A DNA stretch of 27,673 bases from positions 27,484 through 55,156 of the forward strand of contig JAXHUM010000010.1 of assembly GCA_034189325.1 (NCBI GenBank). Direction: 5' to 3'. The notes below the pieces were generated by a model. It was not told the origin of the DNA and made no database searches. It worked only from the letters and a program-made list of their open reading frames with translations. Position numbers and translations under genes: made by a program. This stretch comes from Thermodesulfobacteriota bacterium (lineage in GTDB: Bacteria > Desulfobacterota > DSM-4660 > Desulfatiglandales > Desulfatiglandaceae). Of the stretch, positions 7,081-21,128 are shown in pieces (position 1 is the first letter of the stretch; the number at the start of each line of letters is the position of its first letter).

Positions 7081-7308
7081 TAGGACCTCCTTTTACGTTT
7101 TTTGTTTATTATTTGGAGGTCTGGTGATAGCCTATTTGCGGCCGGGTTATCCAAACCTCCATTGCGGGTTAGCGATTAAAGCCGGTGGGCAGAGCGGCTT
7201 ATGGCTTGGCGGCTTTCCGCTCTGCCCTTTCTTATCCACACAGTCTGAGTTTGGAAGAATCTGAAACCCCGGCAAGCACACAGGCAATCGTGTTCATGCC
7301 TTTTGGCA

Positions 7309-7556
7309 TAAAAAAATCCCCGGACCGAAATGAATCGATCCGGGGATTTCCCTTTTTTATCCTCAAGATCCTACGGCTTCCCTCAGTCCGCGAAGGTTGT
7401 GCCATTGTTATCCAGGCAGGTCTTCTGACTCTCGGATCATCCTACTTACCGCGCCTTCCCATCTATTTTATAACAGACAGTGGCATGATGCAGTGTTCGT
7501 CCCCGATCACAGCGGCGGGTCCGTCCCCGATTTAAACGGGGTTCCCTATTAAGCTC
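7309..7556 (-). ncRNA. Cobalamin (B12) riboswitch, copy 1, with intrinsic-terminator expression platform. It is the leader of the TonB-receptor/CobN operon.
   Basis: The minus strand reads AAUAGGGAACCCCGUUUAAAUCGGGGACGGACCCGCCGCUGUGAUCGGGGACGAA...GGGAAGGCGCGG...AGUCAGAAGACCUGCCUGG. This matches the conserved AGGGAA / GCCACUG-like core and the B12 box (complement of 7405-7420). It is followed by a 12-bp hairpin (complement of 7316-7348) and a U7 tract (complement of 7310-7316). Confidence 0.85.
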
Positions 7557-7591
7557 CTCAAGAGCTCCTGAATAGAATATATGTAGTAGTA

Positions 7592-7619
7592 AGTTTAGTT
7601 AACTGCAAAAAAGAGTCAA
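7592..7619 (-). promoter_or_regulatory. Candidate sigma-70 promoter for riboswitch 1 and its operon
   Basis: Minus strand TTGACT (complement of 7614-7619), a 16-nt spacer, then TAAACT (complement of 7592-7597), about 35 nt upstream of the aptamer. The same architecture recurs before copy 2. Confidence 0.35.
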
Positions 7620-8431
7620 GAAAAAAATGCGGCTGCAGTCTAGCAACGCGAATGCCCTGCAACCCTGGCATACGACTTCAGTTTTGACCAGATTGTCATG
7701 ATCGCATCTCCGCTCTCCTTAATCGATCAGGATCAGTCCGTACAATACGTTTTCGGTGTAGTCGATTTCTGTAAATGAACCTACTTCGATTCCTATGGCG
7801 TCCAGGGAGGGCCTGACATTTGTCGGATCAAGGCATTTGCCATGTTTCCAAATTCACATGCATCGCAAAGATTACAATTGCCCGGGAAAAAACAAAAGGA
7901 TATCCTTGCCCTCCCTTCGCATCCTCAGACTGCAATCTAGGTCTCAGGCATGTTCTTCAACTTTCCTTTGGCAAGTCACCGGCTTTGCCGGGCGTCCCAG
8001 CAGAGTCTGATATTTAAGGGATAAAATGAAGATCCCTCTTGTAGTGAACCGCTCAGCCCTGCAAACAAAGGAGAGAGTTCGATAAACGATACATCAATTC
8101 CAAATCACGCAAGATAGGAACGCCAATGTCATATCATCCTGGTTCCCAAGGTCCAAAAGAAAATGTTATTCGCTCATTATGGGCACTGCCCGGGTTTTAA
8201 GGAATGTGGAACATACCCGTGAGAGTAAAGTGATGGAAGGACATCCGTCATATCACCAAGTGCCCAACGCTCCTGTCAATGCCCCCAAAATTCTCGATGG
8301 CGCAGACTGTGGTATGTAGCAAGGGTAAAAGCGTCATTCATATCACAGGCACCTACATGGGCCGGCGAAAAAACCTTGGAGGACATCAGTGTCGGTCCAG
8401 GAGATAATTTCGTTTCGACAGTTGATCGTGA

Positions 8432-8920
8432 CTACATATAATCAAACTTTCTCCAAAAATCCTTATCGCCACTTCTCCAATCAGAACCGAATCTTTTGTC
8501 ATAATGGGAGGCCATTCTATCGAGCCAACGCCACCATAAACTCTTGCCTTCCTCTTTGGCTTCCAGGACATCATTTAGATATATTGGAAGGTCAATCATT
8601 TTCTCCTTTGGCACATAAAAGGCAGCTCCTCCCTTGAATGATTTGACAGTATGCTCCGGGCTCAGGGCATTGGCGGTCAACATAACAGCTATTACTTTTT
8701 CTTTGTTTGCTATCTTTAACAGACCATATCCGTCTACACCCATAATATCCAGAATGGCCATGTCAAAATACTGAGATTCTAGTAGTTCTTTTGCTTCATT
8801 AAAGGTTGAGGCCTTTACAACATTACACATTGATAATAGTTCTTCAAGTGTTACCAATATATCGGGTTCGTCATCTACAATAAGAATTCTTTTGCCATGC
8901 AACAGGCTTTTCTTTGTCAT
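8432..8920 (-). CDS. Single-domain response regulator (CheY-like receiver) with a C-terminal Trp/Arg-rich ~45-aa tail. Sits directly downstream of B12 riboswitch copy 2.
   Basis: 162 aa. ILIVDDEPDIL (acidic pocket), AILDIMG (phospho-acceptor Asp), MLTA (conserved Thr), FKGGAAFYVPK (conserved Lys). Tail LEAKEEGKSLWWRWLDRMASHYDKRFGSDWRSGDKDFWRKFDYM. RBS CAGGAGC precedes the ATG. Confidence 0.8.
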   Translation of the reverse strand: MTKKSLLHGKRILIVDDEPDILVTLEELLSMCNVVKASTFNEAKELLESQYFDMAILDIMGVDGYGLLKIANKEKVIAVMLTANALSPEHTVKSFKGGAAFYVPKEKMIDLPIYLNDVLEAKEEGKSLWWRWLDRMASHYDKRFGSDWRSGDKDFWRKFDYM

Positions 8921-8959
8921 GATAAGTGCTCCTGATGAACTAATTTCCGTTTTTGGATG

Positions 8960-9204
8960 GAAAAATCCCCGGACCGAAGCAAATCGATCCGGGGATTTCC
9001 CTTTTTATCCTCGAAATCGTCAGGCAACCTCTGTCCGCGTAGGTCACCGCTCTCTTTGTTCAGGCAGGTCTTCTGACTTTCGGATCATCCTACTAGCCGC
9101 GCCTTCCCATCTGTTTTGTAACAGACACTGGCACAATGCTGCTTTCGTCCCCGATCACAGCGGCGGGCCCGTCCCCGAATTGAACGGGGTTCCCTATTAA
9201 GCTC
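8960..9204 (-). ncRNA. Cobalamin riboswitch, copy 2, with terminator. It is the leader of the receiver-domain gene.
   Basis: Same conserved blocks as copy 1 (AGGGAACCCCGUUCAAUUCGGGGACGGGCCCGCCGCUGUGAUCGGGGACGAA...AGUCAGAAGACCUGCCUG). Terminator hairpin is the complement of 8965-8996, followed by only 5 U. The middle stems are diverged relative to copies 1 and 3. Confidence 0.85.
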
Positions 9205-9235
9205 CATCAGGAGCGCCTGAACAGATTTTATATCC

Positions 9236-9263
9236 AGTTTAGTAAACCACGGAATTGTGTCAA
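9236..9263 (-). promoter_or_regulatory. Candidate sigma-70 promoter for riboswitch 2
   Basis: Minus strand TTGACA (complement of 9258-9263), a 16-nt spacer, then TAAACT (complement of 9236-9241). The position relative to the aptamer is the same as for copy 1. Confidence 0.35.
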
Positions 9264-9366: not shown

Positions 9367-9564
9367 TCAGTTCAGAGATGGCGGAATCACAAAATGCTTC
9401 CGGGTCCGAGAGGCATGGGGCATGTCATCCATCCTGCTCAGGGCCAGGACATCCGCCTTCTTTTGGATCCATCTCTCATATTCTCTTGAGATACTCGGAT
9501 CGTAAAAGATGAGGACTTCCCCAAGGTACTTCAATTCTTCACTGATTCGCCAATACTGGTGCAT
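9367..9564 (-). CDS. 65-aa hypothetical small protein downstream of B12 riboswitch copy 3
   Basis: MHQYWRISEELKYLGEVLIFYDPSISREYERWIQKK.... Near-consensus SD AAGGAGGT sits 6 nt before the ATG. About 155 nt downstream of the riboswitch 3 terminator. No recognisable domain. Confidence 0.4.
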   Translation of the reverse strand: MHQYWRISEELKYLGEVLIFYDPSISREYERWIQKKADVLALSRMDDMPHASRTRKHFVIPPSLN

Positions 9565-9719: not shown

Positions 9720-9965
9720 ATAAAAAATCCCCGGACCGAAATGAATCGATCCGGGGATTTCCCTTTTTTATCCTCAAGATCCTACGGCTTCCCTCAGTCC
9801 GCGGAGGTTGGCCATCGTTATCCAGGCAGGTCTTCTGACTCTTGGATCATCCTACGTGCCGCGCCTTCCCATCCGTTTTAAACGGCCAGTGGCTTCAGGC
9901 GGCTTTCGTCCCCAATCACAGCGGCGGGTCCGTCCCCGAATTCAACGGGGTTCCCTATTAAGCTC
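9720..9965 (-). ncRNA. Cobalamin riboswitch, copy 3, with terminator
   Basis: Shares the conserved blocks. The expression platform (complement of 9722-9810) is virtually identical to copy 1. Hairpin is the complement of 9727-9759, followed by a U6 tract. A small palindromic hairpin GCUCACAUGAGC lies immediately 5' of the aptamer. Confidence 0.85.
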
Positions 9966-9986
9966 ATGTGAGCACCTGTTCTGAGA

Positions 9987-10016
9987 AAAAGTAGATCAAA
10001 TAAACAGAGGTGTCAA
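9987..10016 (-). promoter_or_regulatory. Candidate promoter for riboswitch 3
   Basis: Minus strand TTGACA (complement of 10011-10016), a 17-nt spacer, then a weak -10 TACTTT. Confidence 0.3.
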
Positions 10017-10102
10017 TGCCAAAACCACTCGTACCGAGATTTACACTCATTCAAGTTGGGGTTCTCTTCTTCAGATCAAGAATGATGCGCCTGTTTTTAC
10101 CT

Positions 10103-16246: not shown

Positions 16247-18238
16247 TTGATAAGAATCATTGAAGATATTATGACCGAGTCTTTATTCAATTCCCCTTTT
16301 GATGATAGACCTGATAAGTGGACCGATTCTTTCGAAGGGAAGCGGACCGACATACCTATCAATATAGCCTTTATCGGTGGAGGAAAGGCCTGCTACAACC
16401 TTCTTCTGATTCTGGAGAAGAATCGTTCCTCGCGGGTCAACGTAAACGTCCTGGGCGTTGCTGATACCAATCCGGAAGCGCCGGGGTTGATTTATGCAAA
16501 GAAGCTCGGGCTCTTTGCAACGACCGATTTTAGAGACCTCTACAAGTTGGAAGGGTTGAATCTTCTCCTTGAATTAACAGGATCCGAAAAAGCCAGAAAA
16601 GAGATCATCAAAACGAAACCAGCGCATATTTCAATGATGGACCATATTGGAGGAAGATTCCTGTGGGATCTTGTCCAAATGGAGATGGAAAAGACAACCC
16701 TGGAAAGAGAACACCAGATTGAACAGCAGAAGGAGAAAAAACACACACAGGTGATCCTTGATTCTCTGCCCTACAGGGTCATGGTTATCAATATGGACAT
16801 GACGGTCGATAATGTTAACCAGACCTTTCTGAGTGAATTTGATCTCACGGATAAAGATGTCATCGGCGAAAAATGCCACAAGGTGAGATACAATCTTAAT
16901 CGACCTTGCGCGGAGTGTGGTAAGACATGTTATCTCAATGAGGTTGGGAAAGAAAAAAAGTCCATCAGCACGATCCAAGAGTGGAGGAATGATAACAGTG
17001 GGGAGAGGTTTGAAGTTGTGACCGTGTCCCCGATATTGGATGAAGATAATGAAATGGTCCAGTTCATAGAGGCATCGAGGGATGTTACCGAAAGGATCAG
17101 CCTGGAACGTGAAGCCCAGAAGACAAAGGTTTTTCTTGAAGATGTCATTCAGAGTACAGTGGACGGGATCGTTGTTGTCGATAATAAGGGATATGTTCTC
17201 ATATTCAACGAGGGGATGGAACGTCTGACAGGCTACGATGCCCGAGAGGTCAACCATCTGACAAGTTTCTATGACATCGATGTGGCCCGAGAGAACATGA
17301 GAAAGATGAGAAGTCAAGAGTATGGACCTCTGGGAAAACTCAACCCGACCAGCATGTCGGTGACAACCAAGGATGGCCGGGAGATTCCTGTTACACTTTC
17401 CGCATCCCTTGTTACCGTCAATAATGAGGTGATCGGAAGCGTGGGCGTGTTTACGGACATGCGGGAGATAGTCCAGATGCGCAAAGAGCTTGAAGACGCT
17501 CATCTTCAGCTGGTACAAACGGAAAAAATCGCATCAGTGGGAAGAATGGCCGCGGGTGTTGCCCATGAAATCAACAATCCTCTCTCGGGCGTGTTGATCT
17601 ATGCGGAGCTTTTAAAAGAATCCTTGGACGATCGGTCCCCCCTTCAAAAGGATATTCAGGAGATTGTAGATCAGACTCTTCGATGCAAGAAAATCGTGTC
17701 GGAACTCCTGGAATTCAGCAGACAGTCCATTGGGAAGACATCTTCTTTCAGTGTAGAGACATTGATCAATGATTGCCTGAATCTCTTGATAAACCAGGCT
17801 ATTTTTCAGGATATCGAGGTCAACACGCGACTGGAAGAGGAGATGCCTCAGATGCTGGGTGATAGGGGTCAACTTCAACAGGTCTTCACCAATCTCTTTA
17901 TCAACGCTGCCCATGCAATGGAGGGAAAGGGAGCTCTGGGTATCGACGCAAGATATGACAAGGCGAGGGAGTGTTTTGTCATTAAGGTGTCGGATTCAGG
18001 TCCCGGCATTTCTGAGGACCTTCGCGATAAGATCTTTGACATTTTCTTCACAACCAAACCGGTTGGAGAGGGCACCGGGCTGGGCCTGAGCATTTCCCAG
18101 AACATCATCAGTCTTCATGGAGGCAATCTCAGATTTGAATGTCCGAAGGAGGGAGGGACTGCTTTTATTGTTGAATTGCCTATTGGACTGTCAGAGACCG
18201 TTGTTGATGAACGTCTTTTTATTGGATTGGATGAATAA
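16247..18238 (+). CDS. Soluble sensor histidine kinase. N-terminal Rossmann-like domain, then a PAS region with a four-Cys motif, then HisKA and HATPase domains.
   Basis: 663 aa, no TM segments. N-terminal IAFIGGGKACYNLLLIL…VLGVADTNPEAPG (GxGxxA dinucleotide-fold-like). CHKVRYNLNRPCAECGKTC (C-X11-C-X2-C-X3-C). HisKA AAGVAHEINNPLSGV. HATPase N-box/G-boxes …NLFINAAHAM…DSGPGIS…GTGLGLSISQNIISLHGG. An alternative start at 16271 (MTESLF) is possible. Confidence 0.85.
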   Translation: MIRIIEDIMTESLFNSPFDDRPDKWTDSFEGKRTDIPINIAFIGGGKACYNLLLILEKNRSSRVNVNVLGVADTNPEAPGLIYAKKLGLFATTDFRDLYKLEGLNLLLELTGSEKARKEIIKTKPAHISMMDHIGGRFLWDLVQMEMEKTTLEREHQIEQQKEKKHTQVILDSLPYRVMVINMDMTVDNVNQTFLSEFDLTDKDVIGEKCHKVRYNLNRPCAECGKTCYLNEVGKEKKSISTIQEWRNDNSGERFEVVTVSPILDEDNEMVQFIEASRDVTERISLEREAQKTKVFLEDVIQSTVDGIVVVDNKGYVLIFNEGMERLTGYDAREVNHLTSFYDIDVARENMRKMRSQEYGPLGKLNPTSMSVTTKDGREIPVTLSASLVTVNNEVIGSVGVFTDMREIVQMRKELEDAHLQLVQTEKIASVGRMAAGVAHEINNPLSGVLIYAELLKESLDDRSPLQKDIQEIVDQTLRCKKIVSELLEFSRQSIGKTSSFSVETLINDCLNLLINQAIFQDIEVNTRLEEEMPQMLGDRGQLQQVFTNLFINAAHAMEGKGALGIDARYDKARECFVIKVSDSGPGISEDLRDKIFDIFFTTKPVGEGTGLGLSISQNIISLHGGNLRFECPKEGGTAFIVELPIGLSETVVDERLFIGLDE

Positions 18239-19710
18239 TGGATCAAAAGACTCGGATTTTGGTTGTAGATGATGAGAAGGTCGTGAGGGATGGCTGTATC
18301 AGGGTTTTGGCAGGCAAGGGGTATGAAGTCGTTGCTGCTGAAAATGGCCGACAGGCCCTGGATATTATGGCGCAAGAGCTTGTCGATCTTATTCTTCTTG
18401 ACTTGAAGATGCCCGTGATGAGCGGCGAGGAAGTCCTTGATATCACCAACACCACGTATCCTGAAATACCGGTCATCATTATCACGGGCCATGGGACTGT
18501 AGACACGGCAGTGGAATGTATGAAAAAGGGTGCCTACGATTTTATCACCAAGCCGTTTCAAATTGATCAGTTTCGGTTAACCGTATCCAGGGCCATTGAA
18601 AAGAGGAGGCTCGAGCAAAGAGCCAGGCAGTTTCAAGAGGAGAACATTCGAAATCTCTACGATCTGGACCTCGAAAAGAGCCGGTTGAAGACAATTGTCA
18701 ATTGTATGGCCAACGGGGTTATGGTAAGCAATCGGAATCTTGAGGTTGTCCTTCATAATCCGGCGTTGATGAGGCTGTTGGAGGTGTCGGAAGAGGTGTC
18801 GGGTCCGGTTCCCGTGGATCGAATAATAAAGGACGAATCCCTCGAAAATGTCCTTAGGCAGATTCAGGCGGGAGAATCTCCTGAAGAGGGATATATTTCG
18901 CAGGAGATCCAGGCCGGGCCGAAGGTCCTGCGATCCATGTCCGCGCCTGTCCTTGGACCTGACGGCGGGATTGTCGGCACGGTCACCGTCCTTGAAGACA
19001 TTTCGGCCTTTAAGCAACTTGACCAGATGAAGTCCGACTTCGTTAATATGGTGGTGCATGAACTTCGCAGTCCACTGGTCTCAATTAGACAGTTGAATAC
19101 GGTCCTTGTCGAGGGGCTGGCCGGAAAGCTTGAAATGAAGCAGGAAGAACTCATAGAACGAGGGAACAAGAAGATTGATGTTCTCCTGGACCTTGTCAAT
19201 GATCTCCTCGATGTGGCCAAGATTGAGGCCGGTAAGTACATACAACACCAGGTGCCCACCGATATTGGTCGTATTGTCGAAGATACTATGGCACTTATGG
19301 AAATGAGGGCCAAAGAGCAGGGCATTGATTTGAGCTATTCGTGCGAGAATCTGAAGCCGATTCATGCAGATCCAAAAAACATGGAAGAAATTCTTAATAA
19401 CCTCATCAGTAATGCCATCAATTACTCTCCCGAGGGGGGCCGGATAATGGTTAGTGCCTGTGGCTTGGGAGAGTATATGGAAATCAAAGTATCGGATACG
19501 GGAGTGGGGATTCCTGAAGAGGAACTGCCAAAGGTCTTTGATAAGTTCTATCGGGTCAAACATCCCAAAACCAGGCAGGTCCTGGGGACGGGCTTGGGGC
19601 TTGCCATTGTCAAGAGTGTTGTCGAGTCGCACCATGGTTCCATTGACGTGGAAAGCATCCTGGACAAAGGCACGACCTTTAGGATTTTGCTTCCAGTCAT
19701 ATCGCATTAG
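18238..19710 (+). CDS. Hybrid response-regulator/histidine kinase (REC-PAS-HisKA-HATPase)
   Basis: 490 aa. REC domain ILVVDDEKVVRDG…DLILLDLKMP…IIITGHG…KKGAYDFITKPF. HisKA MVVHELRSPL. HATPase GTGLGLAIVKSVVESHHGS. Start ATG overlaps the upstream stop (TAATG). Confidence 0.85.
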   Translation: MDQKTRILVVDDEKVVRDGCIRVLAGKGYEVVAAENGRQALDIMAQELVDLILLDLKMPVMSGEEVLDITNTTYPEIPVIIITGHGTVDTAVECMKKGAYDFITKPFQIDQFRLTVSRAIEKRRLEQRARQFQEENIRNLYDLDLEKSRLKTIVNCMANGVMVSNRNLEVVLHNPALMRLLEVSEEVSGPVPVDRIIKDESLENVLRQIQAGESPEEGYISQEIQAGPKVLRSMSAPVLGPDGGIVGTVTVLEDISAFKQLDQMKSDFVNMVVHELRSPLVSIRQLNTVLVEGLAGKLEMKQEELIERGNKKIDVLLDLVNDLLDVAKIEAGKYIQHQVPTDIGRIVEDTMALMEMRAKEQGIDLSYSCENLKPIHADPKNMEEILNNLISNAINYSPEGGRIMVSACGLGEYMEIKVSDTGVGIPEEELPKVFDKFYRVKHPKTRQVLGTGLGLAIVKSVVESHHGSIDVESILDKGTTFRILLPVISH

Positions 19711-19772: not shown

Positions 19773-21128
19773 ATGGATAAGACACATCTCAAACAGGTTC
19801 TCATCGTCGACGATGAGTCGGTTGTTAGAAACGGTATCAGCAGGGCCCTCAAGAACAGGGGGATGGAGACAAAACCGGCGGCAAACGGCAAAGAGGCCTT
19901 ATCCCTTTTGGATCATTTTGTTTTTGATCTTGCCCTTGTCGATATTCGGATGCCCGTCATGGACGGCATTGAGCTCTTAAGAGAGATGCGTTCCAAATAC
20001 CCCCAGGTGCCTGTTATCATGATCACCGGGTACCCGACCATTGATTCTGCTGTTGACTGCATCAAAATCGGCGCTGTAGACTATCTTGTCAAACCCTTCC
20101 GGCTCGATGATCTGGAAACCGCCTTGAGTAAGGTCGGCCCATCCAAAGGTCCGGTCCAGCATACCGCCATAAGCCAGGTGGGCCTGGAAATTGACTCCAA
20201 GAATAACCTCATTATTGGCCAGAGCCGGGCAATGAGGAGGATATTTGAGAAAACCCTCAAAGTTGCGCCGACGGATACCACGGTTCTGATAACCGGAGAA
20301 TCAGGGACAGGAAAAGAATTGGTGGCTCAGGCAATCCATGCCAACAGTAATCGCAAAGACCGAGAATTTGTGGCTGTTGATTGTTCTTCTCTCATGGAAT
20401 CGCTCCTTGAGAGTGAACTCTTCGGACATGTCAAAGGGTCTTTTACAGGGGCCCACCAGACAAAACACGGATTTTTTGAGCTGGCAAATTATGGGACCTT
20501 TTTTTTCGATGAAATCGGTAACTTAAGCCATAAAATTCAAGCTAAACTTCTCCGTGTGATCCAAGAGAGAGAGTTTGTAAAGGTGGGCGATCATGAGAGA
20601 ATAAAACTGGATATCAGGATCATATCCGCGTCAAATAAGAATCTTGAAGACTCTCTCAGTTCAGGTGAATTCAGAGAAGACCTCTATTACAGACTCAGTG
20701 TGGTCCCGATTCACCTGCCGCCTCTGAGGAAGAGAAAGGAGGATATCCCTCTGCTCGTTCCTCATTTTCTGAGTAAGTTCACTAAAAAACTGAAGAAATC
20801 GGTCCCGGAAGTATCGACTGAGGCAATGGAAATGCTGAAGGAATATGCCTGGCCGGGGAATGTAAGGGAGCTTGAACATACCATTGAGCGAATCCTCATC
20901 CTCGAAGATACAGACGTCATACAGGCTCGGGATCTCCCCTCATTTATCTCACAGAGGCAGGGTGAATTCCAGATGTTCTCTGAAGAACCGTTTACTCTTG
21001 AAGAGCTGGAAAAGAGATATATACGTTTTGTACTTCGCCGGACAAAAGGGAAAAAGTCTGTTACAGCCGATATCCTCGGTATCAATCGCAAGACGCTGGG
21101 CCTGAAAATTAAAAAGTATGGCCTTTGA
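19773..21128 (+). CDS. Sigma-54-dependent transcriptional response regulator (NtrC family: REC-AAA+-Fis HTH)
   Basis: 451 aa. REC domain (VLIVDDESVVRNG…ALVDIRMP). AAA+ Walker A GESGTGKELVAQAIH, ESELFGH, sigma-54 contact motif GSFTGA, R-finger region. C-terminal HTH …TKGKKSVTADILGINRKTLGLKIKKYGL. Confidence 0.9.
   Translation: MDKTHLKQVLIVDDESVVRNGISRALKNRGMETKPAANGKEALSLLDHFVFDLALVDIRMPVMDGIELLREMRSKYPQVPVIMITGYPTIDSAVDCIKIGAVDYLVKPFRLDDLETALSKVGPSKGPVQHTAISQVGLEIDSKNNLIIGQSRAMRRIFEKTLKVAPTDTTVLITGESGTGKELVAQAIHANSNRKDREFVAVDCSSLMESLLESELFGHVKGSFTGAHQTKHGFFELANYGTFFFDEIGNLSHKIQAKLLRVIQEREFVKVGDHERIKLDIRIISASNKNLEDSLSSGEFREDLYYRLSVVPIHLPPLRKRKEDIPLLVPHFLSKFTKKLKKSVPEVSTEAMEMLKEYAWPGNVRELEHTIERILILEDTDVIQARDLPSFISQRQGEFQMFSEEPFTLEELEKRYIRFVLRRTKGKKSVTADILGINRKTLGLKIKKYGL

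Follow-up and report, generated by a model that had tools for sequence, protein, structure and literature searches.

A cobalamin riboswitch leader directly upstream of a stand-alone receiver gene in one Desulfobacterota population

In Listeria and Enterococcus, the riboswitch-controlled sRNAs Rli55 and EutX sequester the response regulator EutV. The locus analyzed here resembles these systems in that B12 availability would be wired into response-regulator output, but in those systems it is a non-coding RNA that is truncated by the riboswitch, acting in trans on an ANTAR regulator encoded at another site, whereas the riboswitch of interest, the second of three copies (copy 2), forms the 5' leader of the mRNA for the regulator itself. 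Copy 2 does not have the character of a trans-acting RNA, since a Shine-Dalgarno sequence and an ATG follow the leader on the strand of the receiver ORF. According to a review (PMC8079631), the eut operon is regulated by the B12 riboswitch Rli55, and PocR, a transcription factor, is the target of AspocR, an antisense RNA under B12 riboswitch control. AspocR offers a second likeness, namely a cobalamin riboswitch that governs a regulatory protein and couples use of a B12-dependent pathway to the supply of its cofactor; it differs in that it is antisense, has an AraC-type target, and is conserved and experimentally shown.

The OFF-switches of btuB/TonB-receptor, cob/cbi and nrdDG genes belong to the same aptamer family as copy 2 and share its terminator-type platform and its expected logic, in which the genes are expressed under corrinoid scarcity only (RF00174; PMC545781). 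Copy 2 differs from them in that its target is a receiver, not a transporter, a biosynthetic enzyme or a B12-independent isozyme, and in that its link to this target is confined to one population. Described cobalamin riboswitch regulons comprise transport, biosynthesis and B12-independent isozymes, and their links to regulators run via trans-acting RNAs. In the literature that we searched, no response-regulator gene was found with a cobalamin riboswitch directly ahead of it, in line with an earlier note on this DNA, which knew of no description of the arrangement.

For the protein itself, comparison can be made with the single-domain response regulators CheY, DivK and CpdR, and with the Cle proteins, which bind c-di-GMP and carry an Arg-rich tail. 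Like these proteins, the receiver encoded in the window (the whole 27,673-nt stretch of DNA that we analyzed) is without a classical output domain and is expected to function through protein contacts, and, as in Cle, it ends in a basic, aromatic C-terminal extension. Neither by sequence nor by structure could this WWRW...FG..W...FW tail be matched to CheY, DivK, CpdR or the Cle proteins.

The riboswitch leader of the receiver gene

Three full-length cobalamin aptamers were identified in the window by Rfam, all on the minus strand, and copy 2 lies in a leader with the following features:

9236-9263, minus strand: promoter-like site of leader copy 2, TTGACA (9263-9258), 16 nt, TAAACT (9241-9236)
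9046-9235, minus strand: cobalamin riboswitch aptamer copy 2 (RF00174, 107.0 bits, E 3.5e-26)
9126-9132, minus strand: variant of the conserved GCCACUG core, GCCAGUG in the window and GACACUG in strain L171
8959-9001, minus strand: expression platform, a terminator hairpin with an 18-bp stem, GGGAAAUCCCCGGAUCGA-loop-UCGGUCCGGGGAUUUUUCC, and a 5-U tract
8929-8933, minus strand: Shine-Dalgarno sequence AGGAG, read from the sequence, 8 nt ahead of the ATG at 8920

The promoter-like site, which was called by consensus match alone and is putative, has 10/12 matches in a consensus scan, and its 3' end abuts the aptamer; TTGACT-16-TAAACT is the paralogous site ahead of copy 1 (7619-7592). Aptamer 2 spans the full Rfam model (1-189/189), and its score of 107.0 bits exceeds the gathering score of 31.5, which bears out the B12 riboswitch that had been proposed upstream of the ORF; the same aptamer scores 110.7 bits in strain L171. 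Its B12 box, AAGUCAGAAGACCUGCC (9063-9079), is intact and is the same in all three copies. The platform folds with an MFE of -49.2 kcal/mol (z -3.8) and was also called by a terminator scan, and its U-tract has 5 U, compared with 6-7 U in copies 1 and 3 in the paralog alignment. Two further features were seen by eye only: a possible anti-terminator pairing in copy 2, and, where the 7-nt loop of an aptamer hairpin is set against the terminator loop, a G-C pair in copy 3 that corresponds to C-G in copy 2, with copy 1 misfitting.

Between the 3' end of the Rfam aptamer and the ATG there are 125 nt; counted from where the hairpin and U-tract end, the distance is 40 nt. The gap of about 40 nt reported in the earlier note is right only if the expression platform is counted as part of the riboswitch, because measured from the aptamer end the gap is 125 nt. 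The 40 nt ahead of the ATG are too short for a bypass promoter.

From this anatomy we infer a ligand response and OFF logic, and in the reading that we favor, which we regard as evenly poised between right and wrong, the locus is a real, young, lineage-specific functional unit in which corrinoid, through the cobalamin riboswitch, represses a stand-alone receiver. A btuB-type leader consisting of promoter, class-I cobalamin aptamer and intrinsic terminator would have been triplicated locally, and one leader copy would have come to stand ahead of a gene of a stand-alone receiver family. With corrinoid bound, the 18-bp terminator would form and transcription would stop 40 nt before the ATG; with corrinoid scarce, read-through would allow the receiver to be made, alongside the uptake/CobN operon of copy 1 and the 65-aa protein of copy 3. 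The most economical guess is that the receiver would then adjust a catabolic module to cofactor supply.

The receiver, its tail and its closest paralog

The receiver gene and the two parts of its product are as follows:

8432-8920, minus strand: receiver ORF, 162 aa, ATG start
8603-8887, minus strand: receiver (REC) domain, residues 12-106, Pfam PF00072 Response_reg
8435-8548, minus strand: conserved C-terminal extension, residues 125-162, GK-x-WWRW-x2-R ... Y-D-x-x-F-G-x-x-W ... D-x-x-F-W

A Pfam search of the ORF matched PF00072 Response_reg at 40.1 bits against a cut-off of 30.2, and among 75 homologs D16, D17, D58 (in AILDIMG), T82 and K105 were invariant and the aromatic switch residue, Y102, was at least 90% conserved. 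AlphaFold, supplied with the 75-sequence alignment, predicted a (beta-alpha)5 receiver fold with a long fifth helix (pLDDT 88, pTM 0.85). With PF00072 above its cut-off and all catalytic residues present, the description of the product as a complete CheY-like stand-alone receiver stands, and from its sequence the protein looks phosphorylatable. At codon 84 (8669-8671), two residues past the conserved Thr, the window receiver has Asn, in contrast to the His present in at least 90% of the family; this position is presumably one that affects receiver autodephosphorylation rates.

The tail is roughly 40 aa long and was predicted by AlphaFold to form two helices (129-144 and 148-161), and W129, W132, R135, G145, W148 and W156 are invariant in the family alignment. 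Sequence and structure searches with the tail returned no match to any recognised domain or solved structure, consistent with the original impression that it contains no recognisable output domain. Homologs of the receiver fill more than 5000 database clusters (90% identity). The best 120 of these come from Desulfobacterota, range from 155 to 182 aa, with 160-166 aa in nearly every case, and are 66-80% identical over their full length, with one at 99%; the family is mostly confined to Desulfobacterota. When a profile of the tail alone was run against 1.84 billion representatives, it recovered 178 clusters, essentially all of them receiver-plus-tail proteins or fragments, and the rare fusions consist of a PEP-utilizer-type protein with receiver and tail (723 aa, P0259), Usp with receiver and tail, and receiver and tail with a second receiver. 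A large family of stand-alone receivers in Desulfobacterota is marked by this Trp/Arg tail. The receiver is without DNA-binding or enzymatic output and most likely acts through protein-protein contact via its tail.

We also considered whether the ORF might be a truncated form of a longer regulator, a possibility raised in the earlier note. This was ruled out by the conserved tail and by the constant homolog length, which at about 162 aa shows that the ORF is not a fragment.

The closest paralog in the same genome, P0002, is 80% identical to the receiver and is encoded in the same two MAGs, as judged by the accession numbers of the assemblies. Between the two genes dN/dS was 0.11 and dS 0.94, and on this sequence comparison the receiver gene is under purifying selection. 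Its composition is unusual: GC is 39% in a window of 49% GC, and GC3 is 0.39, compared with 0.52-0.61 in its neighbors and 0.49 in P0002. The gene lies 9.4 points in GC below its locus, where family genes usually lie about 3.5 below, and at the 78 other loci examined for the family the deficit never goes beyond 8.9 points. The receiver gene may, on this sequence evidence, be a recent arrival, as its low GC would fit recent acquisition, or alternatively a different expression regime.

The P0002 gene (L081, 1-9584) lies 34 nt past a gene for a family-III CoA-transferase, in an operon that encodes three family-III CoA-transferases, a 132-aa B12-binding-domain protein of the mutase-subunit type, MmgE/PrpD, OAD-beta and an HMGL-like/biotinyl protein. 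This operon is the sole hint that links the present receiver lineage to B12-dependent metabolism. Copying of flanking DNA along with the gene from the paralog locus was excluded, as the nucleotide similarity to L081 begins and ends with the ORF. A more specific version of the functional reading, which we consider decidedly improbable, is that corrinoid scarcity induces a dedicated receiver that competes with or replaces the 80%-identical sibling P0002 via the helical tail, and that B12-dependent catabolism is thereby shut down or re-routed.

Paralogous leaders, strain variation and conservation of the link

The other leaders and the sequences around them are as follows:

7398-7586, minus strand: cobalamin riboswitch copy 1 (RF00174, 110.2 bits)
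9808-9994, minus strand: cobalamin riboswitch copy 3 (RF00174, 106.1 bits)
7301-7620, 8959-9263 and 9722-10020, minus strand: the whole leader units of copies 1, 2 and 3 (promoter-like site, aptamer, terminator), all within 2.7 kb
9367-9564, minus strand: 65-aa ORF behind copy 3, with a good ribosome-binding site and a native-like GC3 of 0.61
7587-8431, minus strand: ORF-free stretch of 845 nt from the receiver stop codon to the promoter of leader copy 1

Homology among the three leaders runs from the -35 hexamer through the U-tract (about 310 nt, 84-99% identity) and ends abruptly past the terminator. Comparison of the three paralogs revealed 4 stem pairs that were changed on both sides with pairing kept, implying that the paralogs diverged under structural constraint after duplication; this number was equalled in 14/500 shuffles, and sliding the 3' partners by 1-3 columns gave at most 2. 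Copies 1 and 3 share 99% identity over 89 nt in their platforms and differ more in their aptamers, a pattern that suggests that the platform was recently duplicated or subject to gene conversion.

Copy 1 precedes an operon for a TonB-dependent receptor, DUF2162, an ExbB-like protein, DUF2149 and CobN (assigned by Pfam, and CobN by homology). The CobN-type cobaltochelatase homolog (3151-2, minus strand) is truncated by the start of the window and is 41% identical over 1052 aa to the CobN of a relative, L172. The delta-proteobacterial B12 regulon includes B12-regulated transport and nrdDG (PMC545781), and by analogy the copy-1 unit is an ordinary corrinoid/cobalt operon, a textbook case of B12 regulation. 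The 65-aa ORF behind copy 3 has 11 homologs of 65-70 aa in Thermodesulfobacteriota; one of them lies between CobN and NrdD-NrdG in L172 and another beside an ATP-cone fragment in L176. The ORF encodes a small conserved protein associated with loci for B12 and ribonucleotide reductase, and the copy-1 and copy-3 units fit a corrinoid-starvation regulon. The idea that this ORF is always riboswitch-led was refuted, as there is no riboswitch near its homologs in L172 and L174; in L175 and L176 the upstream DNA is too short to judge.

The 845-nt stretch past the receiver gene contains no ORF of more than 71 aa on either strand, and it has a terminator-like hairpin at 7647-7632. It gave no Rfam match and no similarity to any locus collected for comparison. 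A decayed nrdD or other gene was sought here and past copy 3, and tblastn and tblastx comparisons with NrdD, NrdG and all collected loci returned nothing. The stretch may represent a long 3' UTR, the remains of a gene or an unrecognised RNA.

Repeated leaders of 84-99% identity over about 310 nt are places where short reads might be mis-joined, and the short-read contigs L084 and L169 do break inside the repeats, so we considered whether the junction between riboswitch and receiver ORF could be an assembly chimera. However, the same junction was recovered in four assemblies from at least three read sets: the window, L084 (SRR24907504), L169 (SRR24907505), which carries SNPs of its own, and L171 (JGI 3300040801), a second MAG that is annotated as Desulfatiglans sp. 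and contains all three riboswitches. Furthermore, bases private to copy 2 run through its aptamer and platform and continue unbroken into unique ORF sequence. Because the junction recurs in four assemblies, one of them with SNPs of its own, it is not an assembly artefact, and we consider a chimera extremely improbable.

The link was found in one population only, represented by two MAGs and two read-set assemblies, and recurrence restricted to the contigs of one population implies a single evolutionary event. At the other family loci, a cobalamin riboswitch was found at 0/119. These comprise 30 species genomes with true family members, where the locus had no riboswitch and no match to any Rfam family; 88 further loci (80 metagenomic and 8 on long contigs), where none was found with a covariance model built from copies 1-3 of the window and used without a divergent positive control; and L170, which encodes the 73%-identical P0004 and was negative by both our own model and Rfam. 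The 8 long-contig loci include L081-L083, which encode the 80%-identical P0002 and had no riboswitch by our own model, nor, for L081, by Rfam. Co-occurrence of this tail with RF00174, for which the earlier note had proposed a search in other genomes, was not seen at these loci, and with 0/119 other loci riboswitch-led there is no comparative support for selection favoring the wiring. The riboswitch-receiver wiring is a real local curiosity and not a general rule.

Within the population, the window and L171 differ at 22 positions in 5.8 kb, of which 4 fall within the 190 nt of aptamer 2 and 0 within aptamers 1 and 3. This gives aptamer 2 the highest SNP density of any feature (2.1% vs 0.3% background), an excess with a Poisson P of about 0.0035 that is marginal once corrected for 15 features. 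Two of the 4 differences fall in the CCACUG block, one per strain and with different substitutions. The CCACUG core, given in capitals in the Rfam consensus, is not matched by aptamer 2 in either strain (CCAGUG in the window, ACACUG in L171), and the change in either strain breaks one base pair of the core helix. In the window variant, the first pair of this helix becomes a G.G mismatch, which is marked as non-standard in the Rfam alignment, and comparison of the three paralogs showed that pair 108-129 is unpaired in copy 2 only. The copy-2 platform has 0 SNPs between the window and L171, and the terminator stem is perfect in both. Given the SNP excess, the core change in each strain and the shorter U-tract, it is possible that aptamer 2 is relaxing.

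These observations bear on the main rival to the functional reading, namely that copy 2 is a by-product or relic: the neutral outcome of leader duplication, or of a gene landing behind a leader, that is now drifting, with the receiver expressed leakily or constitutively and corrinoid control weak or lost. Its absence from all 119 other family loci, the SNP density of aptamer 2 with its independent core changes, a U-tract of 5 U, a GC3 that suggests a foreign or recent gene, and the featureless 845 nt past the gene, which are consistent with a rearranged region, would all be accounted for in this way. However, aptamer 2 still scores 107-111 bits with its B12 box intact, both strains have the same perfectly paired terminator stem, and the compensatory changes indicate past structural selection. 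In addition, a single mismatch per strain need not abolish binding, and SNPs located in repeats may partly reflect assembly cross-talk between the copies. We regard this explanation as possible, if on the unlikely side.

The functional-unit reading draws its support from the complete leader anatomy, the preserved stems, the maintained gene, the invariant catalytic residues, the confident fold, the junction in four assemblies, the corrinoid-type neighbors and the link of P0002 to B12. Against it count the lack of conservation of the link, the variability of aptamer 2, which is the greatest of any feature, the core change in both strains, the shorter U-tract and the low GC3 of the receiver gene.

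Gene neighborhoods and the possible role of the receiver

The earlier note had named two histidine kinases and an NtrC regulator in the window as candidate partners. The kinases (16247-19710) and NtrC (19773-21128) lie on the other strand in an operon of their own that already contains two receiver domains, and no kinase gene adjoins the receiver gene. We rejected them as partners: the operon is self-contained, and no evidence ties its products to the receiver. Because this tie is missing, the suggestion that corrinoid availability feeds into a phosphorelay went beyond any finding and could only be inferred.

The receiver family as a whole has no fixed partner gene, and its neighbors are mostly catabolic enzymes, in operons with PEP-utilising, UbiD-type carboxylase and CoA-transferase modules. 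Within +/-2 genes at about 118 loci, UbiD-type (de)carboxylases were found at 12 (directly upstream at 11), UPF0261 at 12, PPDK_N at 12 and AMP-binding/hydrolase proteins at 11; a PAS histidine kinase, on the opposite strand, was found at 10 of about 118. A PEP-utilizer-type protein of about 570 aa is encoded two genes upstream of the receiver in L147, L151, L008, L024 and L019 and two genes downstream in L099, and in P0259 the same protein is fused to receiver and tail in a 723-aa polypeptide. The evidence for linkage and fusion comes from loci L001-L030 and L089-L168 and from proteins P0259, P0184 and P0280. We take the family modules to resemble phenylphosphate-synthase/carboxylase, by comparison with the Thauera pps/ppc genes, and this analogy suggests a role of the family in catabolic modules of that type. 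The phosphodonor for the family receivers is possibly not a kinase, and the pattern speaks for control of catabolic enzyme systems through protein-protein contact, as opposed to a classical kinase-to-DNA pathway.

Applied to the present locus, this leads to an alternative in which the switch works and the receiver is not kinase-fed: it would take its phosphoryl group from a PEP-utilising (phospho-histidine) enzyme or from small molecules, or would instead be a phosphate sink or an allosteric subunit of the PEP-utilising enzyme, and the riboswitch would consequently tune an enzyme system and not a two-component pathway. The PPDK_N, UbiD-type, UPF0261 and AMP-binding neighbors, the PEP-utilizer-type neighbors in six loci together with the fusion in P0259, and the occurrence of a histidine kinase within +/-2 genes at only 10 loci are in line with this alternative. 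However, no PEP-utilising enzyme adjoins the receiver gene of the window, the fusion and neighborhoods indicate functional linkage and not phosphotransfer, and the receiver has a canonical pocket that suits His-Asp transfer whatever the donor. We consider it unlikely for this receiver, whose phosphorylation and target are both inferred.

If the functional-unit reading is correct, a receiver mRNA with a B12 riboswitch acting in cis would provide a direct and minimal route from cofactor status to protein signaling; if the receiver does compete with or replace its sibling P0002, the locus would provide a cis-riboswitch input to receiver-based control of catabolic enzymes. The value of the finding is limited, since the wiring was found in a single population and copy 2 of the riboswitch may be weakening. 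The locus is a natural snapshot of a riboswitch leader that was copied and then recruited to a new gene. The receiver family, with more than 5000 clusters at 90% identity, is a tractable candidate for a new receiver output, given its invariant WWRW tail, its linkage or fusion to PEP-utilising proteins and its linkage to UbiD-type modules, and anaerobic aromatic degradation is the candidate setting.
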